Shown here: positions 2,044 through 60,853 of the stretch, one piece after another
Layout of the letters: each line of letters begins with the position of its first letter
How positions within the stretch are numbered: position 1 is the stretch's first letter
IMG/VR virus record: IMGVR_UViG_3300034375_004361
Span: 1 to 60,853 of that record
DNA length: 60,853 nucleotides
From: a virus
Taxonomy: Duplodnaviria; Caudoviricetes
Strand: one strand, 5' to 3'
Notes under the pieces: generated by a model
Told to the model about the DNA's origin: nothing
What the model saw: only the letters and a program-made list of their open reading frames with translations
The model's database searches: none
Program-made: the position numbers and the translations under genes

Positions 2044-2169
2044 CTAAGTACCTTGAGAGGACAGGTCTTGAGGGTGCGGCTCCTTGGGGGCCTTCCCTCC
2101 TCGACACAGAGCTGACTCACAGATACCTCAAGTCCTCTGGTAAAAAAAGTATCAAGGGATAGCTATATC

Positions 2170-2608: not shown

Positions 2609-2621
2609 GTATATTTGCTGT

Positions 2622-3733: not shown

Positions 3734-3747
3734 GTTATCTTTGAGCC

Positions 3748-4998: not shown

Positions 4999-5028
4999 GG
5001 TATTGAATTGATTAGATTTGTTTCGTGT

Positions 5029-5064
5029 TTCTGTCTCTATAACGACGCAGGATTCTGGATATTG
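5029..5064 (-). promoter_or_regulatory. Early promoter motif CAATA-N15-CGT-N9-AGAA
   Basis: CAATA TCCAGAATCCTGCGT CGT TATAGAGAC AGAA. Confidence 0.65.
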
Positions 5065-5081
5065 TGTAAACGAACGTTAAA

Positions 5082-6168: not shown

Positions 6169-6199
6169 TGAAGTATATTTGTGAGGTAAAATTAAGGAT

Positions 6200-7111
6200 A
6201 TGGCTACTCTTACTGGAGGACAGATAAAAGACACATACACGGGGCTTATCAAGACCACAGACAACGCTGGCATTACAGGGAGTCTTAAAAGAATCACTGA
6301 TGGCGCTGGTGCATCAACGGGGATTCAACTTTCTAGTGCGAAGCTCCGTGCGGATGCTCTAGAGATAAATACGGTTGTCGAAAACAATTCTAGAACGAAG
6401 CTTCTTAACTGGGATGCTTCCGATGGGGTTGTTGGTTTCTACTCTTTCTCTACAGCCGACCCTGCTGTATCTGCGTCTATTAGTAGTGATGATGTAACCA
6501 TCACCACAGGCACCAACGCAGCGAACAATTTTACTCTGGTTAGCGGGACCAATGTTACCATGTCCCTGACAGGCACCGATGTGACAATCTCAGCTACTGG
6601 TGGTCTGGACGATTTGTTTGCAAGAAACCTTGGTCAGGGTGTTGATGCTTCCTACACAGTCGCTACTTCTGAGGCTGGTCAGACATTTACGCTTGGCGCA
6701 AGCTCTGGAACGACAACGACTATTACCCTTCCAGATGCTGCAGATGGATTGTCTTTTGAGTTCAAGGTTATTAGTGAGGGCACCTACTTTATTGATTGTG
6801 CTTCAGGAGATGGGTTCAAGGGAGCTATCGCTCTGACTAACAATGGAGTTAGAGGTTCCCTTTCGGATGGAAGCGATACAAAACTTCCATATACAATGTT
6901 TCAGGTTGCTGCAGTAGGCGATAACAGAATCAACATCAATGGATTGGTGACATCAGGAAATCACATTGGTGGATACATTAGAGTTGTTGCTACGAGCTCA
7001 AGTGTTTGGCAAGTTGAGGGTCACCTCTTTAATGAGATTGATTACGCCTTCTATGCTACTGTAAACGGTATGCCATCCACGACCCCAGACATCCTTACTA
7101 CTCAACCTTAA
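6200..7111 (+). CDS. Virion structural/fibre-like protein
   Basis: Thr/Ser/Gly-rich; MATLTG..IKDTY N-terminus; TITLPDAADGLSFEF. Confidence 0.65.
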   Translation: MATLTGGQIKDTYTGLIKTTDNAGITGSLKRITDGAGASTGIQLSSAKLRADALEINTVVENNSRTKLLNWDASDGVVGFYSFSTADPAVSASISSDDVTITTGTNAANNFTLVSGTNVTMSLTGTDVTISATGGLDDLFARNLGQGVDASYTVATSEAGQTFTLGASSGTTTTITLPDAADGLSFEFKVISEGTYFIDCASGDGFKGAIALTNNGVRGSLSDGSDTKLPYTMFQVAAVGDNRININGLVTSGNHIGGYIRVVATSSSVWQVEGHLFNEIDYAFYATVNGMPSTTPDILTTQP

Positions 7112-7126
7112 TTCGTAACTTAGGGC

Positions 7127-7405
7127 ATGGACGATATTTTGAAGAAGACCATGTTCGAGGAGATTGATGAAGCCTTCGAGCAGATTGAGCAGATTGTATC
7201 CAAGTACAACGTGTCTGGAAACATCGTCTACATGGGATGCGTCGGCCTCATGGAGGAGGAATCCGAGGATGTCCACGAGTGGCAGGTGAAGTACACATGG
7301 AATGTAAAAGACAAAGACGAGTTGCAGGAGGTACTGCAGTTGCAGGCTGAAGCCTATATCCAGGCTGAGCCCGACGACCCCCTCGACTTTCTTTTTATGA
7401 ACTGA
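7127..7405 (+). CDS. Acidic hypothetical protein, 92 aa
   Basis: ORF with TAACTTAG 3 nt before ATG. Confidence 0.75.
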   Translation: MDDILKKTMFEEIDEAFEQIEQIVSKYNVSGNIVYMGCVGLMEEESEDVHEWQVKYTWNVKDKDELQEVLQLQAEAYIQAEPDDPLDFLFMN

Positions 7406-7406
7406 T

Positions 7407-7640
7407 ATGATTATTAGAAAGATTGTCGTTGGGCCAAACCCCAAGGACGCAATGGCCTACTTCGTAGGCATGAAGGCTGGTCACGGAAAAGTCTCTGCTA
7501 TTGTGGAGGACGAGCGAGCCGCGTTTAAGTACAGCATCCGCAGGTACAACGTATTCATTGAAGACGAGGATTCTACCTATATTTGGAAAACGGTTGAGAA
7601 TCAACCAGTCTTAATTGAGTACGATTGTAACTTTAGATGA
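7407..7640 (+). CDS. Conserved phage protein upstream of co-chaperonin
   Basis: IRKIVVG..PKDAMAYFVG...WK......V.IEYD. Confidence 0.75.
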   Translation: MIIRKIVVGPNPKDAMAYFVGMKAGHGKVSAIVEDERAAFKYSIRRYNVFIEDEDSTYIWKTVENQPVLIEYDCNFR

Positions 7641-8218
7641 AGTCATTGAACCACTTCATCGTTAAGGTGGAGAAACGCTTTAACGATACCCTTGATGTAA
7701 ACGGACAAGAAATCTTTCTCGATTCCAAGTGGAACGAGTTTGACCACCGCATCTGCTATGGAGAGATTACCTCCGCCCCTATTCGTCACAACACAGGAGC
7801 GAAAGAGGGGGATATCCTTTTCTTTCATCACCACGTAACCACGACGGAACACTTTAAGGTTGATGAGGATTTGTACCTCTCTACCTACCAGGAGTACCGT
7901 CCGCATTCTATTGCCTACAGGCGAAAGGAGGATGGTGAGATTGTGATGCTTGGGGACTGGCTCTTTGTAGAGCCTGCCGAGGTCGAGAAGGTTGACCAGG
8001 TCACCGATAGTGGTATTGTCACCGAGCTTGGCATCAACGTCAAGGACCGAGACGTAGCTACGGTAGTTGCACCTACTGAGTATCTAAAGGTACAGGGCGT
8101 TAAGGCTGGTGACAGAGTTGGCTTCAGCAAAGACGCTGACTACAAGATGAAGCTCGACGACGGAAGCATCGTTTTCAGAATGACTGAAGACCATTTGCTG
8201 TATGTCGAAGAGAGCTAA
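7637..8218 (+). CDS. groES: GroES/Cpn10-like co-chaperonin (tandem domains)
   Basis: LGDWLFVEP...TDSGIV mobile-loop motif, VKAGDRV; N-half has AKEGDILFF. Confidence 0.7.
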   Translation: MKSLNHFIVKVEKRFNDTLDVNGQEIFLDSKWNEFDHRICYGEITSAPIRHNTGAKEGDILFFHHHVTTTEHFKVDEDLYLSTYQEYRPHSIAYRRKEDGEIVMLGDWLFVEPAEVEKVDQVTDSGIVTELGINVKDRDVATVVAPTEYLKVQGVKAGDRVGFSKDADYKMKLDDGSIVFRMTEDHLLYVEES

Positions 8219-35816: not shown

Positions 35817-38800
35817 ATGGAGACAAAGGAACAATTCCTTGCACGTTACCAAGCGGCTGTAGATGCTGGCGCATCAGAGGCTGAACTGCAAGCAATGCGT
35901 CGCGAGAGACTCGCGCAAGTCAGACGACAACAAGAAGAAGACGCTCGCCTTCAGCAAGAAGAAGCTGAGCGAAAAAAAAAAGAGCAAGAAGAGGCCGAGC
36001 GTTTACGTTTGGAGCAAGCTTCGGAGGTGGATTTTGGGGAGTCTACCTTGGCGTCTCCAGCTCAAGCGCCAGAACCACGGAGTGGAGATTCGGATTCTCC
36101 TCCCGTAGTATTTAACCCCCACCAGAACTACGAGTTTCAGGGCAGGCAAATTCCAGGCGCCGATGCCCAGATGGTGTACGATTACGGACAGGCCTATGAG
36201 TCAAACCGTAACAAGTGGATTGAGGAGAACTTTGACATCTTCCAATACTATGATTCCAAAGGCTTAGATACATCTAGGCTGGAGCAAATGTCTCAAGACG
36301 AGCTAGAGCAAGAAAGGCTCTCGATGATTGAGGCTCTTGAGTACGGTGTCCAAAACAACACCGAAGATGGCCTGTTGGAGTTTGCCCGAGGATTGCCTGA
36401 TGCACCGCAACCAGACACTTTCGACCAACTGTTTAATATCCCAGCCAGAGCAATCTATTCTGGAAGGGATAAAGGATTTTACGCTCCAAATTTTGAGCCC
36501 GAAGAGGGCTCCACTCTTGAAGAGCGAGAACAGCAATACAAGGATTTCGTTCTAGACCTTGAGAGAAAGTCTGCAAGCAACGAGATATTCTCTTATATCA
36601 ACGGACAGATTGAGCCTGATGCTTCATCGCAATTCCAGGAAACGTTAGGCTCTGACCTCACATTAGAACAAAGGCGTTCTATTGAGCAAAACCTTTACAG
36701 AAACTACGACATTGCCACTGACCTTACTGGTGAGGGATACGTCAACGAGTCTGGTCAAGGATGGCTTGGTGTAACAGACGTGTTTTCCCCTGGATTCAGG
36801 AAGAGTTCCTTGAGCATGTGGGACGGTGTTGCTACCGCAGTGGAGAATGCACTAGGAGGAAACGAGGAGGACCAAACAGCACGGAGAGAACGTATCGAAG
36901 AAATCCGTAAGGAGATGGCGGTGTCCAATAAATCTCTTGAGGAGAAGCTTTTAGAAGGAGATGTCGGAGGATTTTTCTCTGACAGTATTGGTATGCTCGG
37001 GGCTTCAGCCCCTTTGATGGGTGCTGCAATGCTTACTGGTGCGGTAAGTCGTGGTAATGTGCGGGCTGTTGGTAGTGTTACATCCCTCCTAGGTGGGGCA
37101 ACAGTTTACTCAGAAAACAAAGACACTGATTGGTTTAAGAACTTGAGCGATGCTCAAGCACTTGGGTTTGTGGTTAGCAGTGGTGTGGCCGAGGGACTGC
37201 CCGCAGCTGTGGGTTCTCAAATCTTTGCTGGAAAAACTATTGCTGGCGCAATTTTTAAGAACATTGTCACAGAGGGTGCCGAGCAATCATTCAAGCAGTG
37301 GACAAAGGGTCTCTTGATTGGTGCAGGCTTGGGCGCTGTTGAGGAAGGTATCACAGAGGGGGTTACCGCAGGCTGGCAGTATACCTCTAGAATCAATGCT
37401 CAACGCGCAGGGGGCGAAGCTGTCAAGTGGGATTACGACGAGTTCTGGAGGCAAACGCGGGAGGGTGCTCTCGCGGGTATGTCTATGGGTGCTACAATGG
37501 CAAGCTCTGGTGACGTTGCTAGAACTGTAGCAAGCAAGGGAATAGACCTTATCAAAACAACAGCGGTAATCAAGGAGTTGCAGCAGTCGTTTACTCAAGC
37601 GGAGAGCAAGCAAGAAAGAGCTGCAATCGGAAAGAGGATTGTTGAAGCTGTTAGTGCCTTCAGCAAGCTTAGCGAAAAGCGGGTTGCCTTGATGGAGGAG
37701 TTGGAGCAATCTAACCCCGAAGCCTACAAGCGTCTTGTTGAGATTCACAACAGGGTTGAGGTTCTTGCAGAGAAGTACACACGAGCTGACCGTACTGCAA
37801 GAGCAGGAATTACCAAGGAGGTTCGCAAGCTCCTCGACGAAAGGGGAACTATTGAAGGTGAAATGGACGCCATCTTTGAGACAGACGGCAAGGTTGAGTC
37901 TCAACTTCTAGCAAGGGCAGCTCGTAAGGCTGGTAAGCGCAGAAGTAATTATGGTGGTTTGTTTGAAGACGGTAGAGGAAAGGTCACCGTCAGCTCGGAA
38001 AACTTTGGTTCAGTATCTAAGATTCTTTCTAAGCTTACAGAATTTGATGTGAGCCCATTCACTACCGTAACACAGGACGGCAAAGAGCGTCAGGTAACTA
38101 CTGGTGCTCGTATTGTCAAGGGTGTTCAGAACGCCATGAACGTCGTCAAGGCGATGTCTTCTCTTGGAGACTTTCAGTTTGAAATCTACAAGGACTTTGA
38201 CACTATGGTCGAAGACCTCATGGAGATGGAAACGAAAGACCCAGAGACTGGTGAGGTAAGAAAGATGAACCGTGAGGAGGCTGCGAACATGGTTGCTCGT
38301 GGCTTGTACATTGGTCAAGGAAAAGCCAAGCTGTTTCTTCCTGGAATGCTTGAGAACACAGCTTACCACGAGGGGTATCACGACTTCGTCATCCAAAGCC
38401 TTGGTACTCAGGCTGCTGTTGGTCTCGCAAAGAAGCTTTTCCAAGCCCTGCCAGACAACCTGAAGCAACGCTACGGAAACTTCCTCAAGGATTACGGAGA
38501 TGGAACTGGAGACCTTACTGGAACCCTCCGCAATAAGAACGTAAACAAGGGTGTTAAGGTCGAGTCTGCCGATGAGTTCTTGATGGAGTTCTTGGCTGAC
38601 CTCAGTGCTGGTAATATCAGCGTTGACATCCAGAAGAGCGCCATCAGAAAGTTCATGGAGTTCTTGTCACCGCATCTCGGGAGGATTGGGGTGAGAGATA
38701 TCCCATCTGCTAAGATTGAAGACGTTGTATCTGCGGTCAACAGATTGACTTCAGATGTTAGAGAAGGTCGCCGCATCGACTCTATCGAACAGCTCAAAGC

Positions 38801-41800
38801 TGCTACCATCAGAGCCAACTATGCAGGGATTGCTATGAAGGCTGGCATCATTTCAGATGACGATGCAGAAGACGGGTTTGATGAAACCAAGAAGCAGGCC
38901 ATGGAGTCTGGTGGCAACAAGATTTTTGCTACTGTAGTATTTAAGGTAAGCTTGAGCGGCAAGGCTAACTGGCCCGTCAAGAAAGTGTTTGAGAACCAAG
39001 CACACCTCGACAACTTCGTGTCCTACATGGAGCGTAATCGCGGGTGGAAGTTTGATGAGCTGTATGTCCACGAAGGTGAGTACAACTCTGAAACCAGACA
39101 GGCCACAAGACAGAAGTCTGAGCCTATTAGAGAGACGAGAGACGCGACAAGCATTGACATCATTGATGCTTCAGATGCAAAGGGCATCAGCTTCTTCGCT
39201 CGCTCTATGGACAGAGCCATGAAGATGATGGCTGAGCGTGGCATTAACATTGGTTTGCAAGTCACCCAGCTTTCAGAAGAGGACGTACAGAAAATCGTAG
39301 ACGAGGGTGGTACAATCTTCATGACATCAGACTACGGTGCTGGAGGCTACATCACCAAGGAGGGATACGTTGGCGGCATCTTCAAGAACCCTGACTCTGT
39401 ATTCAAGAGAATCACCAAACCCATGTTCGCATGGATGGAAGCTTGGGCGGCAGAGAGAGACCTTGAGATTTTCTTTGATGCATTTGCTACAGAACTTGAG
39501 GACATCTACATCGGACTCGGATATAAGCCAGTAGGAAGAACCTCGTTCAACAGGGAGTACGCTCCAGATGGATGGGATGCAGAGAACTCACCTCTGCTTG
39601 ACGAGCCTGACGTGGTGTTCTTTACCAAGGGTGAGGGTAGCAAGGGCGAAGGCGTTAGATACGACGACTATATGGAGGCCTATGACGTGGTAAGCAATAG
39701 CGTCAAGAAGCCCAAGGCACAATCCTTGCCCAACCCTGAGCTAGAGCAGAACGCTCCCGTTCCATTCCAGCAAGCAGCGAACGTTAGCGAAGCTCAGATG
39801 GCTGAGCGCCGCAAGGAGATTAAGCTGCCAGAGTCTCAGAGACAGACACGTAATGCTGTTGTATTGGACGTGCTCAACAAGTACGAGCTTGGAGAAATCA
39901 CACAGGAGGATTACTTGCGTGCGGTCAGGGAAAACATGCCCATCAAACCATTTGAGACCGTACCAGAAATCCCAACAGTTCTCGACGTCGCTTCTTCGCT
40001 TACCTCAGACAAAGTCACTAAGGGAATCATTGGGGTAAACAAGGAGTTGCCCGACGGATACTACGTGGGCCTTCGTCTCGACATCCCTGCCTACGACACC
40101 TACGACACATGGGTAGTGTCTGTACACCAGGGTAAAAGAGCTGAAGAGAGAACACCATTCTTGGGTGGCAAGGCTATCGGATACGGTCAGACAGCGGTAA
40201 TTACAAACGCAACGTTTGACTCTACACCTATGGCTTCCCTCAACATTGCAAGGGGCAAGGGTAAGCAGACCATTGCTCGCATGTTCGGTGACTACAAGAA
40301 CGAGTCCCCTGAGTCCGTGTACCAGAGAGCTGTCGATATCATGAATGGGTCAGAATACAACTCTGACTACAAGCAGATTGGTAAGATGGAAGGCTGGATT
40401 CAGGTCGGGATGAACCCGTTCCGTCACAGCTGGTTCTACGACAAGCGAGATGGCAGACCTATCGCCGAATCTTCTGAGGTCATTCAAGTGGGTGCCCTCG
40501 TTCTCGCCAAAGATGCAGTCAAAATTTCTGAGTCCGATGAAAGATTCAATGCGAAAAGCCGCGTTAGTGGGCAGACGATTAAGTTCCAAAGGGTTGGCTC
40601 TCAAGGAGTTGACCCCGTTGCGCTCGTCAAGCCACAACAGCTCGGCATATTCAACCTTGAGTTCAGCGCCACTACAACTCAGATGGATGAGTGGCTTGCC
40701 AGTGGTACTGTAAGAACAGAAGACCTGTCCATGCTCGAAGGACGTGCAGTTCTATCTCACTCACCAGATAACATGATGGTTGGCACAGCAAGTGTCGACG
40801 GTCGGGTGATTGCAAAGAACGGTGGTGGTCTCTTCTACTCTGCAAACACGGGAGACGTGTGGGCGGTGGCTGGCGAATCCGCTGGCAAGAACATGGCGGG
40901 TGAGCTCAACAAGTTGCTCAAGGAGTCCCGAGACGGAAAGGCATACATGCTTCTCATCAGTGGGGGCAGGATGAAGCACAGGAGCTCCACCAACGGCGTT
41001 GTCACATTTGCAAACTTGGGACTTGAGCTAGTCAATCAAGGTGTCTTGACGAAGACTGAGTACAAGAATGCCTTGAAGAAAACCATCGCTCTTACTGAAG
41101 AAAGGTCTATTGCCGCTCAGATTAAGGCTAACGAAACGAAGGTCAAGAAAGGAGGTAAGGCTGACCCTCTCAAGAGGGGAACTGCTAAGCTCAGTAGTAT
41201 GGCTGGTAGCACAGAGGCTTTGATGCAGAGGTTCTTCGAGGAGTTTGCCTCAGCAAAGAAGTCAACCTTTGAGCAGAGGAGGGAGTTTGCGGAAACGTTT
41301 GGAACTGTTCTCGGTGAAGTTGTCAAGGCCAAGGCTAGTCAGGACAGCAAGACCAAGGCAGACATCATTGCCAAGTACGAAAAGATGTTTGATGCCAAGC
41401 CGAACATGCGTCAGTTCGGTTCGTTCCTGAAGAACTTCTTCTTCGATTACTTCCAAGAGAAGGTGCTGCAAGGCGTTGAGCCCAATCAGATTTACGGAGC
41501 CATTGAGATTACCTCTGAGGTAAAGCTTGAGAGAGACCCGAACCCTCTTGCTTCATATCCGCTCAAGTTGGTTAACGTTGACACCAACGCTCCAGCTCCG
41601 AAGACTATTGTGTTCAAGACAATGAATGACGCTATCTCCACACTGGAAAGTAGAGATAGAAACATTGAGCAAAACAACAGACTCGGTGTTGGTGACATGA
41701 AGCTTGACGCCAAGGGCAAGCTTTCCTACATCACCAAGCAAGCATTCCAGATGATGGGAGGCATGGGTCAGGCCACTTGGGGTCGGATGTTTGTCAAGGA

Positions 41801-44800
41801 AGCGATTCCTGTAGATGCGATTTCAAGAGAGGTAAAGTCTGTTTCAGAGAGTGTTTCTGTTATCCAAAGTGCTAAGGCTCAGGGCAATCTGATGAAGCTC
41901 ATCGCTGACATGGTTGACCCAGCGGCACCCACTCCAGGCGCGAGAGTGAATAAGCGAGGAAAGCTTATTATTACGCCCTCGAAATCGGAGCTATGGAACA
42001 GAAAAAAGTCGGAGGTAATCGAGCTGCTCACTGCGAGCGGCATGAGCAAAGAGAACGCAGAGGCCTTGTATGCTGCTGCAAAAGCTTACAAGGAAGGAAG
42101 GACAGCGGGAAGGAAGGCTGCAGAAAAAGCTGCTCGTAACACCCTCGGCAAGAGAAACCAAAAGCTTAGCACCGAATCAAAGAGACTCAAGGAAGAACTA
42201 GACAAGCTTAAATCCAAAGCGAAGACAGTTGACGAGTTCTTTGGGTTCGCAGTAAAGCTCATCAACGAGCGTATGAAAGAGTTGGGTACTGTGCCCTTCT
42301 CCAACAAGGACGTTCAAAGGTTGATGAAGATTGCTAGGCAGGCTCACAAAGCTTCTGCTGCAAGGATTAAGAAAGAGGGTGGGGCTGAGGTGATGGACAC
42401 CTTTGTCGAGAAGCTCATCGACATCTTTGACAAGAAGGATTCGCAGAAGGCCATGGCTAATTACTTGGCCTCGGTGTCTGCTGCAAGAAAGCTTCAGCAG
42501 TCTTTGCGTCGTGTGGTCAAGTCACGTAAGAAAGGGGAAGCCCTCAAGTCTACCGCATCCTACAGTTCTGTCATTGGGAAACTTGCTGGCATCAACCCAG
42601 CATTGATTTCTCCTGCAGATATGGGGGACTTCCTCAACACCTTGGCTGCAGCTACAAGCTCTGTGACCAAGGTCAAGACGAAGTTCGACACAGAGGAGCA
42701 GCGCGTTGTTGCCGAAGCTCCGCAGAGAATCTCTGTTGAAGCTCTTGAAGTATTGGCTAACAAGTTCAAGGCCCTTGAAGAGATTGGAAGGAACGCGGCT
42801 ATGGTTGCCAAAGCCAGGGCTGCTGCAGCAAAGAACAACACGAGCTTTGATGAGGAGTATGACAAACTGGTCAAAGCATTCGAGAGGGGCAGACTGAGTG
42901 CAACACGCAAGGCTATCCTTGACTTTATCGACAACAACCCTGCACTCAACCTCGACCCAGCCAACCCAGCTGACGTAGAGTTTGTTTTGGGTAAGCTCGC
43001 AGAAGACAAGGCAGACTTGTTGGAACAGCAAAAGGATGCAATCATCACTGACGTGATTATCCCCAGAATCTTTGGGAACTTGGACAAGCTTCTTGAAGAC
43101 CAGCACATTGCAGAGATATTGGGAATCTTCGCAGAGGATGGGTTTGACCCACAGGCTCTGCGTCAGCGACTCAACAAACTAGACAAGATTACCCTTGCCA
43201 GCCTTGAGTTCAAGCTCGATGACTACATCATGAATGACTCGGTCATGGGTCTCGGATACTTGGCGGCAAGAGTTCGCGGTAAGATTGAGATGGCTGACAA
43301 AATTGATTCTGAGTTGGTAGCGAAAGGTATCGGTGCAGTTGGACAACCATTCTTGGCATTGTTTGATACAGCAGACTCGTTCATCAGACTCATCTTCCCT
43401 CAGGGTAACAAGACCATCGCTGAGATTAGAAACTACATTGGTTTCGCTCAGATGGAGAGAGCCTTTGCTAAGGCGGACATGATTCACGCGATGACTGTAG
43501 AGGCCATCACCGATGAGATGACCCGCATCGAAGAGGAAGGGGGCAGCCTTCGGTCAGTCAAGGACAATGCAATCATGCAAGTGTTCTCTATGGCTAGACA
43601 GATGCCGATGCTTGAGGAGGGGGCTCCAGGTCAGAACGCGGCAGAGTGGTACCTGAACTTGCGCGACGCTATGAAGCGAAGCATCGAGCACTACTCTGAG
43701 CAGAAAGACCTGTACAGCAACGAGGAGATTCAGGAGATGCAGGAGGCTTTCGACTACCTCTTCTCTGAACCTAATCTTGAAGGTTTGATTGACAAGGTTA
43801 CTAGTGAGCGTGCTGACCTTGCAGAGTTTGTCGACTTCATGGTCAACATCCACGGCACACAGCAAGACACCTTCGCCAACTACGTTGAGAGATACCTCGG
43901 TAAAACACTCAAAGTAGAGTCAAACTACACACCCTTCCAGGTTAAGACCAAGGTCCGTAATGACGCTGTCGATGAACAGCTCGCTATGCGTCAAGCTATC
44001 ATGGATAGCATGCGTACCTCTTCATTGGCAAACGCCAAGAAAGTTGCAGGTTCCTCTTACGAGCGTAATCCAAAAAGCATCAGCGGTGGTAACAATATCA
44101 TCGGCTTGAACTTCTTGAAGATTAACGAGCGTACACTTAGAGAGAACACAATCCTTACCAACACCGTTGGCGATGTGATGGCGTTGCAGGGAGCCTTCGC
44201 AAGTGAGGCGATGACTAAGCTTATCAAGGATGACGGTACGAGAAAGCAGCTGCATAACAAGATGATGCAGTACATCACTCAGGATGCGGGGCAAGCACCT
44301 GTTGCTTTCCAGTCAACAATCAGCATCAAGGGAAGAAAGGTGTTTAACCCACTGACCTTGGTTAGGAACGCTGTCGTTGTGAAGGCGTTTGGTTCATTGA
44401 TTATTCAGACCATGAAGCAATCTACTGTTGCTATCAGTGTCATGTCTAACGCAGAAAGGCCAACCGAAACCATCCCGTACTTCATCCAAACGATTGGTGA
44501 ACTCTGGGCTCACGCATTGAGAAACGGATTGTTCAAGGATTCCAAGCTTGCTCTGGAAGCTAACGGTAGATACAAGCTCCTCCAGAACTCTCCCGTGTTC
44601 TCAAGAGACTACGAGGCAGGTAACATCGACCCATACACTGGCAGCATCCAGACAGAAACAAACTGGTTCCAAAGAACCCAGGATAAGTTGACGTCTGTTG
44701 CCCTGCAGAACCTGAAGTCTACAGATAAAGTGGTCGCCGTCTCATCATGGTTTGCCTTCTATGCAGACTACCTCTTGTCCGAGGGTATCGTTGATAGTAT

Positions 44801-46130
44801 CGCCGACATCGACTGGCAAGAGCAGGCAGGTTCTCCTAACCAGGATGCACTTAGCTACGCTGACTCGATGGTTACGAAAGACCAGGCAGCGTCAACCCCA
44901 AGACAGGCAGCTGACGTATACAAGGATGAAGGCGGAGCACTTGCTCCCGCAGTGGCGTTCGTGAGAAACGTTGTCTTGCCCTTCGCAAGATTCGCTGTGA
45001 ACAAGAAGAGAAGCATCTACTCAGACTTCAGAAAGATTACCCAGGGTGATGCCCAAACAAAAAGAGAGGGATACAGATTGATGGCTGGTCACATGGCTGA
45101 ATTGGCTATGTTCCACACAATCGGTCAAGTCCTTATCCCCGCTGTCGCTCAGCTGCTCGCGGGTGAAGACGAAGAAGAGTCGGAGTTCAAGGACAACAAG
45201 TTGCTTAACATCGCAGCCAGTGTGGTCATTGACATGCTTCCCACCCCTCCCGTTGGATACTCTGACGACTTGCTCAAGGAGTTTGCCAACTACGCCATCT
45301 TGTTCAAGCTCCCACAGATGCTGGGTGATGAATCATTGCAGGCCACTCAGGGAGAGAGCGATGCCGAGTTGTTTGAACGCATGAAGCGTACACGTCCGAC
45401 CATCAGAACATACCACCAAGGAGCTGAGCTTACGGCAACATCTGCTATGAGCATGCTTATGGGACCTTACGGACAGTTCATCAACGACGCCGCCAACATT
45501 GTTCAGAACCTGTCCATCACAGATAACAAGGTAATCTCATCCACAGGTAGAGAATACTTCGTTAGACCTGAGGACAAGGACCGAATGGACATCCACCACG
45601 GCGCCAGGTTCCTCCTTGCCCTGAGTCAGATTGCTGGGTTCTCTTCAAAGGAACTCGATGTGATTGTTCGCAGGATGGACGACCTCCCTCGTGAACGTTC
45701 ATTCAACTCTGAAGAAGAACTTGCGGCATACGAAGTAATCATGCAAGGCTTCCGTCAAGAAGATGAGATTGCATCACTGCTTAGTGATGAGGCGGGGACA
45801 GAGAGGATTGCAAGAATCCTTCAGGAGAAGGCGAACATGAGTCCGTTCGAGGCTAGACGTGCAACTACTCGATTCAGAAAGGGTCTCGTCAGAGCTGCTG
45901 CTGAAGAATCCCTCAAGGAATATCCAGGATACTCCAAGCACATCCGAGACATCAGGTCAATCGACAAGGCGGCAAAGGATGCAAAAGACTACTACATCAT
46001 TGTGAATCGTAGAAAAGAACAAATGCCTGCAGCAGAATACGCTGAGTTCAAGTATCTTGCTGATACCTACATGGCTATCCTGAGGCAGGGCATGCTTCAA
46101 GAGAGTTCTTACTACAATATCACACAATGA
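35817..46130 (+). CDS. Giant polyvalent ejection protein, 3437 aa (zincin HExxH, GNAT-like and other domains)
   Basis: Hydrophobic Gly/Ala segments near aa 400-570; AYHEGYH...DEFLME; DAF...L.DIY..LGYKPVGR..FN.EYAP.GW. Confidence 0.7.
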   Translation: METKEQFLARYQAAVDAGASEAELQAMRRERLAQVRRQQEEDARLQQEEAERKKKEQEEAERLRLEQASEVDFGESTLASPAQAPEPRSGDSDSPPVVFNPHQNYEFQGRQIPGADAQMVYDYGQAYESNRNKWIEENFDIFQYYDSKGLDTSRLEQMSQDELEQERLSMIEALEYGVQNNTEDGLLEFARGLPDAPQPDTFDQLFNIPARAIYSGRDKGFYAPNFEPEEGSTLEEREQQYKDFVLDLERKSASNEIFSYINGQIEPDASSQFQETLGSDLTLEQRRSIEQNLYRNYDIATDLTGEGYVNESGQGWLGVTDVFSPGFRKSSLSMWDGVATAVENALGGNEEDQTARRERIEEIRKEMAVSNKSLEEKLLEGDVGGFFSDSIGMLGASAPLMGAAMLTGAVSRGNVRAVGSVTSLLGGATVYSENKDTDWFKNLSDAQALGFVVSSGVAEGLPAAVGSQIFAGKTIAGAIFKNIVTEGAEQSFKQWTKGLLIGAGLGAVEEGITEGVTAGWQYTSRINAQRAGGEAVKWDYDEFWRQTREGALAGMSMGATMASSGDVARTVASKGIDLIKTTAVIKELQQSFTQAESKQERAAIGKRIVEAVSAFSKLSEKRVALMEELEQSNPEAYKRLVEIHNRVEVLAEKYTRADRTARAGITKEVRKLLDERGTIEGEMDAIFETDGKVESQLLARAARKAGKRRSNYGGLFEDGRGKVTVSSENFGSVSKILSKLTEFDVSPFTTVTQDGKERQVTTGARIVKGVQNAMNVVKAMSSLGDFQFEIYKDFDTMVEDLMEMETKDPETGEVRKMNREEAANMVARGLYIGQGKAKLFLPGMLENTAYHEGYHDFVIQSLGTQAAVGLAKKLFQALPDNLKQRYGNFLKDYGDGTGDLTGTLRNKNVNKGVKVESADEFLMEFLADLSAGNISVDIQKSAIRKFMEFLSPHLGRIGVRDIPSAKIEDVVSAVNRLTSDVREGRRIDSIEQLKAATIRANYAGIAMKAGIISDDDAEDGFDETKKQAMESGGNKIFATVVFKVSLSGKANWPVKKVFENQAHLDNFVSYMERNRGWKFDELYVHEGEYNSETRQATRQKSEPIRETRDATSIDIIDASDAKGISFFARSMDRAMKMMAERGINIGLQVTQLSEEDVQKIVDEGGTIFMTSDYGAGGYITKEGYVGGIFKNPDSVFKRITKPMFAWMEAWAAERDLEIFFDAFATELEDIYIGLGYKPVGRTSFNREYAPDGWDAENSPLLDEPDVVFFTKGEGSKGEGVRYDDYMEAYDVVSNSVKKPKAQSLPNPELEQNAPVPFQQAANVSEAQMAERRKEIKLPESQRQTRNAVVLDVLNKYELGEITQEDYLRAVRENMPIKPFETVPEIPTVLDVASSLTSDKVTKGIIGVNKELPDGYYVGLRLDIPAYDTYDTWVVSVHQGKRAEERTPFLGGKAIGYGQTAVITNATFDSTPMASLNIARGKGKQTIARMFGDYKNESPESVYQRAVDIMNGSEYNSDYKQIGKMEGWIQVGMNPFRHSWFYDKRDGRPIAESSEVIQVGALVLAKDAVKISESDERFNAKSRVSGQTIKFQRVGSQGVDPVALVKPQQLGIFNLEFSATTTQMDEWLASGTVRTEDLSMLEGRAVLSHSPDNMMVGTASVDGRVIAKNGGGLFYSANTGDVWAVAGESAGKNMAGELNKLLKESRDGKAYMLLISGGRMKHRSSTNGVVTFANLGLELVNQGVLTKTEYKNALKKTIALTEERSIAAQIKANETKVKKGGKADPLKRGTAKLSSMAGSTEALMQRFFEEFASAKKSTFEQRREFAETFGTVLGEVVKAKASQDSKTKADIIAKYEKMFDAKPNMRQFGSFLKNFFFDYFQEKVLQGVEPNQIYGAIEITSEVKLERDPNPLASYPLKLVNVDTNAPAPKTIVFKTMNDAISTLESRDRNIEQNNRLGVGDMKLDAKGKLSYITKQAFQMMGGMGQATWGRMFVKEAIPVDAISREVKSVSESVSVIQSAKAQGNLMKLIADMVDPAAPTPGARVNKRGKLIITPSKSELWNRKKSEVIELLTASGMSKENAEALYAAAKAYKEGRTAGRKAAEKAARNTLGKRNQKLSTESKRLKEELDKLKSKAKTVDEFFGFAVKLINERMKELGTVPFSNKDVQRLMKIARQAHKASAARIKKEGGAEVMDTFVEKLIDIFDKKDSQKAMANYLASVSAARKLQQSLRRVVKSRKKGEALKSTASYSSVIGKLAGINPALISPADMGDFLNTLAAATSSVTKVKTKFDTEEQRVVAEAPQRISVEALEVLANKFKALEEIGRNAAMVAKARAAAAKNNTSFDEEYDKLVKAFERGRLSATRKAILDFIDNNPALNLDPANPADVEFVLGKLAEDKADLLEQQKDAIITDVIIPRIFGNLDKLLEDQHIAEILGIFAEDGFDPQALRQRLNKLDKITLASLEFKLDDYIMNDSVMGLGYLAARVRGKIEMADKIDSELVAKGIGAVGQPFLALFDTADSFIRLIFPQGNKTIAEIRNYIGFAQMERAFAKADMIHAMTVEAITDEMTRIEEEGGSLRSVKDNAIMQVFSMARQMPMLEEGAPGQNAAEWYLNLRDAMKRSIEHYSEQKDLYSNEEIQEMQEAFDYLFSEPNLEGLIDKVTSERADLAEFVDFMVNIHGTQQDTFANYVERYLGKTLKVESNYTPFQVKTKVRNDAVDEQLAMRQAIMDSMRTSSLANAKKVAGSSYERNPKSISGGNNIIGLNFLKINERTLRENTILTNTVGDVMALQGAFASEAMTKLIKDDGTRKQLHNKMMQYITQDAGQAPVAFQSTISIKGRKVFNPLTLVRNAVVVKAFGSLIIQTMKQSTVAISVMSNAERPTETIPYFIQTIGELWAHALRNGLFKDSKLALEANGRYKLLQNSPVFSRDYEAGNIDPYTGSIQTETNWFQRTQDKLTSVALQNLKSTDKVVAVSSWFAFYADYLLSEGIVDSIADIDWQEQAGSPNQDALSYADSMVTKDQAASTPRQAADVYKDEGGALAPAVAFVRNVVLPFARFAVNKKRSIYSDFRKITQGDAQTKREGYRLMAGHMAELAMFHTIGQVLIPAVAQLLAGEDEEESEFKDNKLLNIAASVVIDMLPTPPVGYSDDLLKEFANYAILFKLPQMLGDESLQATQGESDAELFERMKRTRPTIRTYHQGAELTATSAMSMLMGPYGQFINDAANIVQNLSITDNKVISSTGREYFVRPEDKDRMDIHHGARFLLALSQIAGFSSKELDVIVRRMDDLPRERSFNSEEELAAYEVIMQGFRQEDEIASLLSDEAGTERIARILQEKANMSPFEARRATTRFRKGLVRAAAEESLKEYPGYSKHIRDIRSIDKAAKDAKDYYIIVNRRKEQMPAAEYAEFKYLADTYMAILRQGMLQESSYYNITQ

Positions 46131-46657
46131 AATTAGAAGTTTTAAGAATAAGCAGTCAAGAGGATTCTACTTCGGGAGTTCTCTTTGACGTCACTGGAAA
46201 CAGAGAGTTCCTGTGTTACACACTAGAAGATGAACAAAGAGATACAAAGATTGCTGGAGAGACTCGCGTACCCGCTGGAACTTATCGAATCACTTATCGA
46301 ACAGAGGGTGGCTTCCATAAGAAGTACTCCCACCGCTTCCAAGATATTCATCGGGGTATGCTATGGGTTCGTGATGTTCCTGGCTTTGAGTACATACTTA
46401 TTCATTGCGGTAATACTGACGAGCATACTGCTGGTTGCCTCCTGGTTGGAGAGACTCAGTCGAGCAATGTTAAAACTGCTGACGGGTTTATTGGAAAAAG
46501 CACACAAGCCTACTTCGACTTCTATCCCAGAGTTGCTGAAGCTCTTGACCGAGGCGAAGAAGTAATCATTACATATATCGACTACGATGGAAAACAAAAA
46601 GATAAAAGAAACAAAGCTCGGTTCCTGGCTAAAACAAAAAGCCCCCGCCGTTCTTGA
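46127..46657 (+). CDS. DUF5675-family protein (candidate endolysin)
   Basis: FLCYTLED, ETRVPAGTY, VPGFEYILIH.GN...HTAGCLLVG; adjacent to holin. Confidence 0.75.
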   Translation: MKLEVLRISSQEDSTSGVLFDVTGNREFLCYTLEDEQRDTKIAGETRVPAGTYRITYRTEGGFHKKYSHRFQDIHRGMLWVRDVPGFEYILIHCGNTDEHTAGCLLVGETQSSNVKTADGFIGKSTQAYFDFYPRVAEALDRGEEVIITYIDYDGKQKDKRNKARFLAKTKSPRRS

Positions 46658-47027
46658 CGTAGCTGGTGACATGCTGCCCGACCAGGGTATGCTTGGTGTG
46701 GTCAAGAACCTGCTCGACAAAGAGCCAGGAGTTGACCCATCCGAGGCCAAGGCTATGGTAGATGCAGAGATTGCGTACCAGAACAACGTGACTGAGAGAT
46801 GGAAGGCAGACATGGGCAGCGATGTCAAGCTGGCAAAGCTTATCAGGCCCGTCACTTTGATTGCTTTAATGAGCATGTTTATGGCGACCATGGTGGCTGA
46901 CAGCATGGACAACTGGGCCTTCAACGTAAAAGACAGTTACGTATCTTTGTTAGAGATTCTAATGTTGACTTCTTTCGGTGCATACTTTGCGGGCCGCACC
47001 ATTGAAAAAGCTCGACCAAAAAAATAA
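46587..47027 (+). CDS. Holin (3TM/GTA-type-like)
   Basis: RWKADM.SD..L.K.IRP; two C-terminal TM helices; AYF.GRT.EK. Confidence 0.75.
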   Translation: MENKKIKETKLGSWLKQKAPAVLDVAGDMLPDQGMLGVVKNLLDKEPGVDPSEAKAMVDAEIAYQNNVTERWKADMGSDVKLAKLIRPVTLIALMSMFMATMVADSMDNWAFNVKDSYVSLLEILMLTSFGAYFAGRTIEKARPKK

Positions 47028-47029
47028 TC

Positions 47030-47302
47030 ATGGCATACAGTTTTGCATCTAAACAGTGGACCATTTCTGGTGAACACACTTTCAACGACCAGGGTATCAC
47101 ACTTTTGAACCCAGTCATCAAACCAAACAGCGTCAGAGTTAAAGGGGAGGTGGTGTATGTTGACTTTGAACTCACCGAGAACGGAGGCGTGTACAAGCAC
47201 GGCACTTCATTCAAGTACGACACCACTACAGAAAACAACATCAACGATTTGGTTGACGACGTAGTGGCAGCTGCATTCCCCACCGCAACAGTTGTAGAAT
47301 GA
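47030..47302 (+). CDS. Hypothetical protein, 90 aa, beta-rich
   Basis: ORF with A-rich leader, coupled to next ORF. Confidence 0.7.
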   Translation: MAYSFASKQWTISGEHTFNDQGITLLNPVIKPNSVRVKGEVVYVDFELTENGGVYKHGTSFKYDTTTENNINDLVDDVVAAAFPTATVVE

Positions 47303-47436
47303 GCGAGAAGAGAGACGACTTCGGCTGTGATTTCTTGGACCAAGACAAGCTCAAGGAACAAGAAGCAAAGATTGAGAGCGGAGAGCTGGTATGCAACATG
47401 GAGAATCCAGAGGAGTGTGAGGCTTGCGGTTCCTAA
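47299..47436 (+). CDS. 45-aa acidic peptide ending in an RNR-alpha-like C-terminal Cys tail (not in ORF track)
   Basis: MSEKRDDFGCDFLDQDKLKEQEAKIESGELVCNMENPEECEACGS; ATGA overlap with upstream gene. Confidence 0.75.
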   Translation: MSEKRDDFGCDFLDQDKLKEQEAKIESGELVCNMENPEECEACGS

Positions 47437-48463
47437 TGGGCTGAGGCTTTTCCTCGTCGCATCACTTTTGTGCGTGGCTTCTGTCGCTCAAGGACAGCTG
47501 CTACGATTTTCTACGCTCTACGGTAGCCTCAGTGGTAATGCCCCACTAGTAGAGAACTCTAAGTACAGAGTTAATGGAGTTGCTGGCTCAGGATATCTTG
47601 AAGAGATTACTGAGGTAAACAAAGCAAACTACATTCTCACCGTTGGCCTTAGGAAGATTGCTAGGTTTGACTATCAGGTCAAGCAAGGTCAGTTCTACAC
47701 GGGTCAGGAGAACGAGATTAGTGACAATGCTACTGTGTCAAATGCTCCAGGACTGGAGTACTTGCTTGAGTATTCTGCTGTCAGGAACAGAGGTGATGTC
47801 TTCCGCCAGCAAGAGTACAGGGTAAGGTATATCAGTAACTGGTTCACGTTGAGGGGTAGCTACATCAGTGATGGCCTTATCAATCTGAAGTACACTCAGG
47901 CAGAGCTCAGACTACGCAAGAGGTTTGGAGACTTTGACTTTACAATAGGTGCCGCTCACAGGGCGCACCCAGTGTATGGGTACTCTCCCATCGAGGCTTG
48001 GTTTGATGACCCAAACAACAAGCACTGGTGGCAGCTTGCAAACGAGTTTGGCTTTTACAGTGACGATGATGAGGTCTGGAGACTAAACGGTGATGTCATT
48101 GCCCAATCCGACGTAGAGTTTTACGGGTATCACTTTGGTGATATTGTAAATGACTACAACAGAAGAGAGCTGAGTGAGTTTGGGCTTCAGCAAGAACTAT
48201 CTGGTGTCGTAGGTATTGACTACTACAAGTACGGTGAAGACTCTTGGGTCCACACATGGTGCTCTATTTACAGCATGCACAGAGGACTTGACGACTTCTC
48301 TTTTGACTACGAAGACCCCATGGATATTGAGTGGGACGCTGGTTTAGTCATCGGCTCAAAGCTCAACAATCATCTTAGTATATTTGTAGAAGCCAGACAC
48401 TTACAGTACTGGCAGATTACATCATACGCGGGTAGGTGCGGCTTTAATTATTTATTCTTCTAA
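47417..48463 (+). CDS. Putative outer-membrane beta-barrel protein
   Basis: Likely GTG start at 47417; signal peptide ending VAQG/Q; amphipathic aromatic-rich strands; C-terminal GFNYLFF. Confidence 0.65.
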   Translation: MRLAVPNGLRLFLVASLLCVASVAQGQLLRFSTLYGSLSGNAPLVENSKYRVNGVAGSGYLEEITEVNKANYILTVGLRKIARFDYQVKQGQFYTGQENEISDNATVSNAPGLEYLLEYSAVRNRGDVFRQQEYRVRYISNWFTLRGSYISDGLINLKYTQAELRLRKRFGDFDFTIGAAHRAHPVYGYSPIEAWFDDPNNKHWWQLANEFGFYSDDDEVWRLNGDVIAQSDVEFYGYHFGDIVNDYNRRELSEFGLQQELSGVVGIDYYKYGEDSWVHTWCSIYSMHRGLDDFSFDYEDPMDIEWDAGLVIGSKLNNHLSIFVEARHLQYWQITSYAGRCGFNYLFF

Positions 48464-48465: not shown

Positions 48466-48741
48466 ATGGCAAAGGTTGGCGAGAACACTGAGGTAACTCT
48501 AGATTTGAAAACTCTAGGGATGGTAGCCGCAGGGGTTGGGAGCATGGTCGCCATGTGGTTCTCGCTTCAAGCGGACATCGCTGAGGCCAAGGAGTTGCCA
48601 GCTCCTCATGCTCCTGAGATTACTCGAATGGAGTTTGACATGAAGGACCAGCTCGTTCGACAGACAATCATGAGCACACAGGAGGATGTCACCGAGATGA
48701 AGGAGGACATCAAGATGATTAAAGAAAAACTTTATGAGTAA
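48466..48741 (+). CDS. Single-TM protein with C-terminal coiled coil
   Basis: LGMVAAGVGSMVAMWFSL then heptad-like DVTEMKEDIKMIKEKL. Confidence 0.7.
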   Translation: MAKVGENTEVTLDLKTLGMVAAGVGSMVAMWFSLQADIAEAKELPAPHAPEITRMEFDMKDQLVRQTIMSTQEDVTEMKEDIKMIKEKLYE

Positions 48742-49105
48742 GGTTGTTCTTCTTCTGCTCTTCTTACCGCTATCTGCATTGTCTCAAAACTTTGTAACGC
48801 TTGATGACCTTGACTCTAAAAAGTCAAAGGGTATTACGGTGATTGAGTTCTGGGCTGCCTGGAACAAAGGCAATCAAGTTGAGTTCTTAAAAGAACTAAA
48901 AGACTGCAGGTCTTATCGACTATCTATTGATGACAACCCTGTTGCTGTATCGCAGTACACAGTTAGTAGCGTGCCCACATTGCTTGTCTTTGATAACGGG
49001 ACTGAGGTCGCTCGATTCTCTCCGACAATCATGATGCAGCTTTCTGCAACAAGACAAGAAATTCAACAAGAGATAGACCAGATTATTCTAAAAAAGTTTC
49101 AATGA
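48734..49105 (+). CDS. Exported thioredoxin-fold protein lacking the CxxC active site
   Basis: Signal peptide ALS/Q; VIEFWAAWN (for WCxxC), IDDNP, Y.V.SVPTLLVFDNG.EV.R. Confidence 0.75.
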   Translation: MSKVVLLLLFLPLSALSQNFVTLDDLDSKKSKGITVIEFWAAWNKGNQVEFLKELKDCRSYRLSIDDNPVAVSQYTVSSVPTLLVFDNGTEVARFSPTIMMQLSATRQEIQQEIDQIILKKFQ

Positions 49106-49629
49106 TGAAGAGGTTTCTTTCGACTATCGCCACGGCTTTCGTTCTAATCCCAGCGTGGACACAGCCAAATGTAACCCCTGTCTTTGTAGAGTGTACAGCA
49201 GGGGAGTACCCAAACGAGATTACGTGGGAGATTATGACGTGCGACAGCATGGTTCTTCTTGGAGGAGGTGCTCCGTACTTCGGGGCCGCGTTGATGCCAG
49301 ACCCAGATAGGTTCATCATTCACATGATGGACAGCTACGGCGACGGATGGAATGGCGCATACCTTTTCGTAGGTGAGGGGCAGTATGGATTCCTGTCCGA
49401 CGTTGATTGGATTGACTCACTTGGAACCTGGCCCCAAGACCAACCAGAGCAGTGGGTTACTGTAGGATGCGGTCAGCCTATCACAAGCATTGACGAGATT
49501 GTTGAGGACACGTTCTCAGCTACAGAATACTACAACCTCTTCGGTCAACGTGTACAGCTCAACGGTCCTGGATACTACGTTGCCACAGATGGCACGCGCT
49601 CAAAGCTTATCTACAGGAGAGAAGATTAA
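49102..49629 (+). CDS. Secreted protein with T9SS-like C-terminal sorting domain
   Basis: Signal peptide AWT/Q; YPNEITWEI, DSYGDGWNG; C-terminus SIDE...YYNLFGQRV....GYYV....SKLI. Confidence 0.65.
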   Translation: MMKRFLSTIATAFVLIPAWTQPNVTPVFVECTAGEYPNEITWEIMTCDSMVLLGGGAPYFGAALMPDPDRFIIHMMDSYGDGWNGAYLFVGEGQYGFLSDVDWIDSLGTWPQDQPEQWVTVGCGQPITSIDEIVEDTFSATEYYNLFGQRVQLNGPGYYVATDGTRSKLIYRRED

Positions 49630-60076: not shown

Positions 60077-60853
60077 TTAATTTCCAAGGATGCAGTCAAC
60101 AGCCTTCATCGCTTGGGTGCATGCGCTGACAAGGAACTTCTTGTCGTTGCCAATCTTGGCAATCCATCCGTTGATGTATGCCTGTGAGTTCGTCTCGTCA
60201 GACTTGGGTTGCAGACCCACGATGCCCGTGAGGAACTGCGCTCCAACTTCTGCCACGAGTTCTTCCTTGCTGTAGTTCTCGTCACCGAATGCGTTCATGT
60301 CAACCAAGGTCTTTCGATTCAACAGCGTCTCGTGTCCTGTGCTGTGCGTCAACTCGTGGAAGAGCACCTTGTAGTAGTCGTCGGAGGACACGAAGGTCTC
60401 CATCTTCGGCATCTGGACGTGGTGTGTCGCAGGCTTGTAGTATGCTCGGTCACCTCCCTGCTTCAGGCTTGGCCGTCCCTTGAACTGCTCGTAGATAGCT
60501 TCGGCTCGCTCGATGGGCGTTGCATCATTGCTTGCCTCCACGGATTCTCGCTTGGGTTCGATGCCGTCACATTGAGCAACGTTGAACACGTTGTAGGCTC
60601 GAAGTGAGAACATTTTCTCGTAGGCCATGCCGATAGGAATGTCAGACTCCTTCTTGTAGATTTTCTTGTCCTCTCCCTTGAAGAAGATGTTCCAGAAGAT
60701 GACCATGGTGGATTTCTCTCCCTTGCGAACCTGACCACCGAGACCTTCAGCCTGCTTGTAGGTCAACCACTCGTTGTGGTCGTACCCCCTGTCCTCCATC
60801 TCGGCGAACAGCATGAACACGTTCATCCCTTTGTACGGACGGCCAGTTGCTCG
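60077..60853 (-). CDS. ardC: ArdC-family antirestriction protein, main part (ssDNA-binding domain + zincin-like MPTase domain)
   Basis: WLTYKQAEGLGGQVRKGEK, YNVFNVAQCDG, AYYKP, LFHELTHSTGH, YSKEELVAE motifs. Confidence 0.9.
   Translation of the reverse strand, partial: RATGRPYKGMNVFMLFAEMEDRGYDHNEWLTYKQAEGLGGQVRKGEKSTMVIFWNIFFKGEDKKIYKKESDIPIGMAYEKMFSLRAYNVFNVAQCDGIEPKRESVEASNDATPIERAEAIYEQFKGRPSLKQGGDRAYYKPATHHVQMPKMETFVSSDDYYKVLFHELTHSTGHETLLNRKTLVDMNAFGDENYSKEELVAEVGAQFLTGIVGLQPKSDETNSQAYINGWIAKIGNDKKFLVSACTQAMKAVDCILGN
60727..60853. repeat. Right copy of the 127-nt terminal overlap
   Basis: Identical to 1-127. Confidence 0.95.

Follow-up and report, generated by a model that had tools for sequence, protein, structure and literature searches.

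At the C-terminus of its alpha subunit, class I ribonucleotide reductase (RNR) carries a disordered segment with a pair of cysteines, mostly arranged as CXXC, which re-reduces the active-site disulfide. This tail is itself reduced by thioredoxin or glutaredoxin, as set out in two reports (PMC9669993; bioRxiv 10.1101/2021.07.31.454598). Here, we describe a gene for a 45-residue acidic peptide in the tailed phage IMGVR_UViG_3300034375_004361, a complete virus record of 60,853 bp with direct terminal repeats that was analysed over its whole length (the window). The C-terminal end of the peptide very probably mimics the tail of NrdA, the alpha subunit (R1) of class I RNR, on the evidence of profile and pattern searches. 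In contrast to the NrdA tail, the peptide has no catalytic body attached to it, and the virus that encodes it has no RNR.

Several described systems share features with this peptide. In the split class II RNR NrdJa/NrdJb, the C-terminal part is a separate polypeptide (PMC9669993), and the likeness to the phage peptide lies in the occurrence of a cysteine-bearing C-terminal part of RNR alpha as a chain of its own. Nevertheless, the phage product is a 45-residue and mostly unfolded peptide from a genome without RNR. An NrdJb-like protein would possess folded IscU-like/zinc-finger domains and be accompanied by a gene for the catalytic chain, whereas the peptide has one predicted helix and no Pfam domain, and no RNR gene was found with it. 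The PA incompatibility domain of UN-24 from Neurospora is likewise a free C-terminal fragment of the RNR large subunit that acts in trans on R1; it differs in its length of 135 residues, its role in fungal allorecognition, its non-reducible complex and its toxicity (PMC3618301). Sml1-type regulators, which are disordered, resemble the peptide as small proteins aimed at the RNR large subunit (PMC11941123). Compared by description, Sml1 is distinguished from it as a eukaryotic inhibitor under checkpoint control. Zhang et al. are said to have found in 2007 that Sml1 competes with the C-terminal domain of R1.

A different kind of likeness is offered by the cytoplasmic lysis regulators of phages (antiholins), which are small proteins encoded beside holin or endolysin genes. 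In many loci, the peptide gene also adjoins, and is translationally coupled to, holin/endolysin genes, but the peptide has no membrane segment, and we know of no antiholin with an enzyme-tail mimic. The peptide falls under viral mimicry of a host protein motif and under small RNR-directed proteins, and it differs from the NrdA tail and from each of the RNR-related systems above as an enzyme-less viral peptide of 45 residues. In our full-text literature search, a free-standing RNR alpha tail encoded by a virus was nowhere described.

Likeness of the peptide to the NrdA tail

The peptide gene and the parts of its product are located in the window as follows.

47299..47436 (stop included), plus strand: gene of the 45-residue acidic peptide, a member of a phage small-protein family, as judged from its open reading frame (ORF), its homologues and its ratio of nonsynonymous to synonymous substitution rates (dN/dS)
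47332..47385, plus strand: family-specific conserved half, residues 12-29, FLDQDKLKEQEAKIESGE, as judged from the alignment, per-codon conservation and an AlphaFold2 helix
47386..47433, plus strand: tail part, residues 30-45, LVCNMENPEECEACGS, with invariant C32, C40 and C43 in the spacing C-x7-C-x2-C and a terminal GS

The ORF begins with ATG at 47299 and ends with TAA at 47434-47436. Its translation is MSEKRDDFGCDFLDQDKLKEQEAKIESGELVCNMENPEECEACGS, of which VCNMENPEECEACGS forms the C-terminal end before the stop. Acidic residues prevail (14 D/E against 5 K/R), giving a net charge of about -9, and no hydrophobic or membrane segment is present in the sequence. The start codon shares ATGA with the TGA of a 90-residue ORF upstream (47030-47302), and the ORF proposed in the initial annotation, acidic and coupled to its upstream gene, was in this way recovered at 47299-47436 on the plus strand.

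The initial annotation had also likened the peptide to the redox tail of RNR alpha, a likeness that stands and can now be drawn more sharply, to the eukaryote-type class Ia NrdA of Bacteroidota. It resides in the last 16-20 residues and consists of three cysteines in the spacing C-x7-C-x2-C, a (D/E)NPE core and a GS or SG end in a strictly C-terminal position; the tail region of the peptide is also predicted to be flexible. When the single sequence was compared with all PDB chains, residues 14-45 aligned with residues 759-792 of human RRM1, both alignments running to the C-terminus (VCNMENPEECEACGS and VCSLENRDECLMCGS, respectively), with an E-value of only 0.8 and a ferritin match scoring alike. 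With a profile of the family, searched against 177,635 PDB sequences, the top match was the last 16 residues of yeast Rnr1 (IACAIDNPEACEMCSG; E 0.0043), and the next matches had E-values of at least 0.37. An hhalign comparison of the phage family with 25 C-termini of NrdA from Bacteroidota and Bdellovibrionota gave a probability of 97.5% and an E-value of 6.8e-12 over the last 20 columns, corresponding to residues 26-45. Alignment with Bacteroidota NrdA had been suggested at the outset as a means of judging the idea, and the cysteine spacing agrees. A word search for longer homologues yielded none at E <= 10 among its five candidates; the relation to NrdA emerged through the profile and pattern searches, not the word search.

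The same ending was sought in cellular genomes. A motif scan over one genome per prokaryotic species returned 194 confirmed stretches, of which 80 were kept. The motif stands at the end of a long open frame in 78 of these 80 loci, with the ending ..CS[LI]xNPExC[EI]ACGS, and such frames are mostly about 780-840 residues long where contig ends do not cut them; the other two loci (L004 and L005) are free-standing phage-type forms on contigs of metagenome-assembled genomes. All long frames tested (5/5) proved to be class I RNR alpha with the barrel and all-alpha N domains, an ATP-cone being present in four of the five. Record titles assign the motif-bearing genomes almost entirely to Bacteroidota, with some Bdellovibrionota. 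A looser DNA pattern, NPExCxxCxx-stop, was detected in 61 of 301 sampled Bacteroidia genomes, compared with two for the reversed control. Among 30 loci returned by this pattern (L170-L199), 27 are long frames with a CSLDNPE tail of the form CSLDNPE.C..C(GS/SG); 24 of these Bacteroidia NrdA tails end in GS, and SG closes the other three, with ..CESCSG as the ending of two. Over its last 16 residues, the peptide has 12 identities to the tail of one Bacteroidia NrdA (L006). Bacteroidota NrdA and the R1 of yeast and human all have a cysteine seven residues upstream of CXXC, and this invariant residue is kept by the phage. As judged from these comparisons, the likeness is real, concerns NrdA specifically among the proteins of cells and agrees with the form of the enzyme in the phylum that probably hosts the phage.

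As part of an RNR catalytic subunit, such a tail would follow a barrel domain; here the ORF is free-standing and the window has no match to PF02867, and the peptide is therefore a tail mimic or derivative and not an RNR subunit. A Cys4 zinc ribbon or knuckle has four conserved ligands in two CxxC-like pairs, and the family has three conserved cysteines only. At the DNA level, identity to 101 nrdA 3' ends extends over at most 39 nt within the tail codons, the longest exact match being 23 nt. With identity confined to the tail codons, nothing points to a recent capture or to an attachment site. The tail may have originated from an ancient capture of an nrdA 3' end or by convergent mimicry, which these data do not distinguish.

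Copies of an nrdA 3' end were observed in one bacterial locus (L200; G076:C69:14000-23500). Within 1967-7513 of this locus, an nrdA gene of 804 codons is followed by two partial copies of its own 3' end, whose open frames end at 6643 and 7513, with a 147-nt repeat that is 93% identical. Each copy lies behind a cassette consisting of a 155-residue ORF with a weak PIN match (Pfam E 0.0013, below the cut-off) and a 55-residue ORF. From this arrangement it looks as if the cassettes insert at, or duplicate, the nrdA 3' end.

The peptide family and its phages

Relatives of the peptide were found by searches of increasing breadth. All three candidates of a word-indexed search (3/3) are 45-residue homologues with 73-98% identity. 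An exhaustive phmmer search of 1.84 billion representatives gave 33 proteins at E <= 0.001, 31 of which are genuine small relatives; the remaining two are giant Cna-B-type repeat proteins without the cysteine motif and were discarded as composition hits. The 31 relatives measure 34-161 residues and share the motif, which forms the end of the protein in 27 of them; in the other four (P0018, P0027, P0030 and P0032) the tail either breaks off early or runs on into unrelated residues. At 50% identity, the family comprises 31 clusters. A scan of IMG/VR with the family alignment produced 301 loci confirmed by tblastn, and thus the standalone homologues in viromes that the initial annotation had proposed to look for do exist. 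We kept 80 of these 301 loci, on which the locus-level counts given below rest. A free-standing ORF was found by pattern in 79 of 81 viral loci, and in the window as well, with a length of 42-92 residues and mostly of 42-48; the pattern missed L102 and L125. The distance between the FL motif and the stop is exactly 34 codons in 79 of the 80 loci.

The median dN/dS is 0.08 (265 pairs from 63 unique coding sequences). With this value and 301 loci, the ORF is conserved, contrary to the possibility, named with the original proposal, that it might not be; it is a real gene, and its family is under strong purifying selection. The invariant or nearly invariant positions are F12, L13, K24, G28, C32, N33, P37, E38, C40 and C43. 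Of the cysteines in the window copy, those of the tail hold throughout the family, C32, C40 and C43 being invariant in 63 of 63 unique coding sequences with C40-x2-C43 placed two residues from the end, whereas the fourth, C10, is not conserved and is replaced by V, I, M and others in relatives. The terminal dipeptide (window 47425-47433 and the related loci) is SG in 48 and GS in 15 of the 63 unique sequences, and never GG or SS.

The N-terminal half is composed of an acidic/aromatic start, the FLDQ motif and one amphipathic helix. AlphaFold2, supplied with the family alignment, predicted one helix over residues 15-27 and left the rest unordered, with a mean pLDDT of 68. Two relationships of this half were considered and set aside. 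A kinship of SFLDQDKL with the last core strand of NrdA (KFTVDQ..L) was seen by eye only, lies outside the hhalign local alignment and is not claimed. Mimicry of the NrdB C-terminus (..F.LDEDF, F-x-L-D-E-D-F) was rejected by a shuffle test, in which a position-specific score matrix from 24 distinct NrdB tails was applied to 56 peptides with 500 shuffles each: p had a median of 0.71 and was below 0.05 for 1.8% of the peptides. Members with an N-terminal extension occur, some of which carry a hydrophobic N-terminal segment. In a different phage type (L100, 716-967), an 83-residue member with an extra N-terminal domain is encoded directly upstream of the portal, head protease and major head genes.

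Neither Pfam nor PHROGs holds a family for the peptide, and 32 family members gave no Pfam match below E 0.01. In the ESM Atlas, the peptide retrieved unnamed clusters only, at about 0.90; no record of the GenBank phage collection matched it at E <= 0.01, and a DNA search with the peptide region gave no match. The family is widespread in aquatic viromes and is present in both freshwater and marine runs. The clade consists of uncultured phages, and the peptide is soluble, acidic, largely unfolded and the product of a genuine late gene.

The initial annotation had recognised neither nrdA nor nrdB in the genome, and the window indeed has no match to PF02867 (RNR large subunit) or PF00268 (RNR small subunit), nor to PF00462 (glutaredoxin) or PF00589 (tyrosine integrase). 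A PHROG scan of 56 window ORFs identified terminase, portal and structural proteins, a primase/helicase, an Erf-like annealing protein, an exonuclease and an anti-restriction protein, and no DNA polymerase or nucleotide-metabolism gene was found among these 56 ORFs. Since RNR, glutaredoxin and DNA polymerase were not found, the phage would depend on the replication enzymes and deoxynucleotides (dNTPs) of its host. One of 30 related records has a match to the RNR large subunit (L162; G012:C1:1-2500, positions 1-348). This match is a 115-residue, 5'-open C-terminal fragment of the RNR barrel at the contig start, which ends ..ILNCAVCEA and so has a different type of tail; it may stem from a chimeric or permuted assembly and not from an RNR gene of the phage, and with this 5'-open fragment as the sole match, a phage-encoded RNR in the relatives was rejected. 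In L162/L163, a 98-residue ORF is repeated near both contig ends.

The host phylum is probably Bacteroidota, because close relatives encode proteins with the CHU_C sorting domain of type IX secretion and the window primase/helicase has a BT4734-like N-terminal domain. Type IX secretion is known only from Bacteroidota.

Gene neighbourhood of the peptide

Around the peptide gene, the window holds the following features.

35817..46130, plus strand: ORF of 3437 residues before the lysis genes, no PHROG match at 1e-5
46127..46657, plus strand: DUF5675 protein of 176 residues, a conserved neighbour (PF18925 E 2.3e-26; phrog_1501)
46587..47027, plus strand: holin of 146 residues (phrog_3427 E 2.4e-21; weak GTA_holin_3TM match)
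47030..47302, plus strand: ORF of 90 residues without a Pfam or PHROG match, its stop overlapping the peptide start (ATGA)
48734..49105, plus strand: exported thioredoxin-fold protein without CxxC (Pfam Thioredoxin E 5.2e-6)

For the 80 loci, genes were called with a crude longest-ORF caller, the neighbours were clustered and representatives were annotated. The gene directly upstream of the peptide is distributed as follows.

Holin (phrog_3427): 23/80 loci
M15 peptidase/endolysin (PF08291, phrog_894): 17/80 loci
SLT transglycosylase-domain protein (PF01464): 3/80 loci
DUF5675 protein (PF18925): 2/80 loci
Other: 33/80 loci
None, contig edge: 2/80 loci

Where this gene encodes a holin or an M15 protein (40 cases), it is separated from the peptide by -4 to +2 nt in 37, and a holin, M15, SLT or DUF5675 gene lies no more than three genes from the peptide in 56 of the 80 loci. 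In L104 and L105 the upstream position is taken by a peptidoglycan-binding endolysin-like gene (cluster c78, scanned from L104), and L089, L097, L098, L122 and L124 have the reverse order, in which the peptide comes first and the holin follows just downstream. A holin homologue is present in 28 of 30 peptide-bearing records and in 14/14 of those that are at least 90% complete. In genomes of the M15 type, holin and peptide lie far apart, as in G012, where the former is found at 2.7-3.1 kb and the latter near 42 kb. The 90-residue ORF of the window is missing at this position in L001-L003, in which the holin lies directly upstream of the peptide. Relatives of the 3437-residue ORF measure 2300-3000 residues (clusters c4 and c13) and always stand ahead of the lysis genes; the ORF is possibly an ejected virion protein. 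The common denominator of these contexts is late expression, and the main clade has the peptide in a lysis neighbourhood, not in a replication module; the replication genes of the window are on the minus strand at 49.6-60.8 kb.

The initial annotation had drawn attention to a nearby thioredoxin fold that has lost its cysteines and appears to be exported. Both properties were confirmed: the cluster (c9) occurs in 15 loci, and the 14 distinct sequences listed for it (14/14) all have hydrophobic, signal-peptide-like N-termini and lack the active-site CxxC, from which the protein is probably periplasmic. A functional link to the peptide, in contrast, found no support, as all copies look exported. 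The next ORF downstream of the peptide, at 47327-48463 with a likely start near 47408, has a signal-peptide-like N-terminus and the ending ..GFNYLFF and resembles an outer-membrane beta-barrel; it begins, in another frame, within the final codons of the peptide ORF, and its Pfam match to DUF5491 is weak (E 0.007). Elsewhere in the window, a GroES-like co-chaperonin (phrog_13932, E 1e-27) and the anti-restriction protein (phrog_7245, E 9e-62) were located at 7637-8218 and 60077-60826.

Candidate roles of the peptide

The reading that we favour, with a probability of about 0.4, is that the peptide is a redox-active stand-alone tail which enters the host relay from thioredoxin through the tail to the NrdA active site. 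A reductant of the thioredoxin family from the host would reduce the phage peptide, and the reduced peptide would exchange thiols in trans with the active site of NrdA, the host enzyme on which the phage would rely entirely for its dNTPs. The net effect on host RNR would then be supportive rather than inhibitory. We infer the redox activity, the partnership with thioredoxin and NrdA and the supportive effect from a likeness of sequence; the gene itself, the selection on it, the mimicry and the lack of RNR in the genome are the observations from which this reading starts. Every feature of the tail that is conserved between bacteria and humans is kept by the peptide, among them the third cysteine and a free C-terminus, and its three invariant cysteines argue for thiol chemistry over mere binding. 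The split NrdJa/NrdJb enzymes provide a precedent for placing the C-terminal part on a chain of its own.

Several observations weigh against such a relay. The copy is inexact: directly behind the first cysteine, 61 of 63 phage sequences have Asn, where every aligned NrdA has Ser. Only about 20 C-terminal columns are statistically NrdA-like in hhalign, and the N-terminal half is conserved like the tail although it matches a region of NrdA that varies in length and sequence. A conserved half of fixed length thus takes the place of a variable linker, and neither this half nor the fixed spacing of 34 codons is explained by a relay, because NrdA linkers vary. The tethered tail of NrdA should out-compete a free peptide, which makes the kinetic gain unclear. 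A place in the late/lysis operon, away from the replication genes, is odd for a helper of dNTP supply. Metatranscriptome contigs from two runs span 47490-47900 and 49110-49379 and not the peptide ORF, and they speak neither for nor against its transcription.

Some of the same observations can be read differently. The peptide might be a decoy or poison that takes up thioredoxin/glutaredoxin, or the docking site on NrdA, in competition with the enzyme's own tail, and that throttles or locks host RNR or drains reductant late in infection. Tail mimicry fits this equally well, the late-operon position suits an effect late in infection, and the fixed exchange of Ser for Asn beside the first cysteine could yield an abnormal substrate. 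Precedents exist in the free 135-residue C-terminal RNR fragment of Neurospora, which forms a non-reducible complex with yeast Rnr1 and causes phenotypes like those of RNR loss (PMC3618301), and in Sml1, a small R1-binding inhibitor of RNR (PMC11941123). We nevertheless regard a decoy as unlikely: a phage without an RNR or polymerase of its own needs the dNTPs of its host, pure binding would not require three invariant cysteines, and a trap would be expected to lose its resolving cysteine, whereas both cysteines of CxxC are kept in 63 of 63 sequences. A reading that gives the N-terminal half a task is that of an adaptor, in which the tail captures host thioredoxin or glutaredoxin and the N-terminal half binds a late phage protein for virion assembly or lysis. 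Host thioredoxin serves phages as a structural cofactor in the T7 DNA polymerase and in filamentous phage assembly. The tail is no better conserved than the N-terminal half and the exact 34-codon spacing, which would need a partner of their own; extended members, some with a hydrophobic N-terminal segment, also fit an adaptor, as does, from another type of phage, the 83-residue member encoded just upstream of the genes for portal, protease and major head protein. However, the upstream neighbour varies by lineage between holin, M15 peptidase, SLT and peptidoglycan-binding endolysin, and no candidate partner emerges from these neighbours, which leaves an adaptor distinctly improbable in our estimate.

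The neighbourhood itself suggests that the peptide could be a redox switch of the lysis module, a cytoplasmic peptide that times lysis and whose thiol state, set by host thioredoxin and perhaps by RNR turnover, would signal how much reducing power the host has and gate the holin or endolysin. The frequency of holin (23/80) and M15 genes (17/80) upstream, the tight gaps in 37 of 40 cases, the lysis-type gene within three genes in 56 of 80 loci, the five loci with reversed holin order and the c78 endolysin-like neighbour in L104 and L105 all agree with a switch. It is made as improbable as an adaptor by the remote holin of M15-type genomes such as G012, by the window holin, which has no cysteine, and by the peptide, which has no membrane segment; moreover, the location may merely reflect the end of the late operon, and the counts come from a crude longest-ORF caller. 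A very unlikely set of explanations dispenses with a role in RNR or redoxin chemistry, taking the peptide as a metal-binding knuckle, as a convergent look-alike unrelated to RNR and redoxins, or as a passive leftover from the 3' end of nrdA, for instance a copy made at an attachment site. The similarity is indeed limited to 16-20 residues, the three cysteines of one peptide, or those of a dimer, could bind a metal, and copies of nrdA 3' ends do arise in genomes, as in L200. Against a look-alike stand the 12/16 identity to the L006 tail, the same terminal position, the shared alternation of GS and SG and the hhalign E-value of 6.8e-12, which make chance unlikely; a metal site is disfavoured by three conserved cysteines instead of four. 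A passive remnant is excluded by the dN/dS of 0.08, the fixed length and the 301 loci. A copy of nrdA made at an attachment site or gene end was rejected as a candidate, since the window has no match to tyrosine integrase and DNA identity to nrdA 3' ends goes no further than 39 nt in the tail codons.

The supply of DNA precursors has its bottleneck at RNR, for which many phages bring complete genes of their own. If the peptide is the redox-active tail that we favour, a phage family that encodes the tail alone would have a much cheaper way to act on this bottleneck, and the peptide would be a rare case in which a bacterial virus mimics a host enzyme through a short motif. The family also points to the third cysteine of R1 tails, C-x7 upstream of CXXC, for which we know of no assigned role. 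The peptide is small enough to synthesise, and it would be of high interest if the relay function were confirmed. As a tentative extension of the relay, a virus without RNR may supply the electron-carrying tail alone as a diffusible 'peptide cofactor', a new type of auxiliary metabolic gene that would rewire or read the host thioredoxin-RNR relay, and its co-translation with holin/endolysin may couple the timing of lysis to the redox flux of dNTP synthesis.

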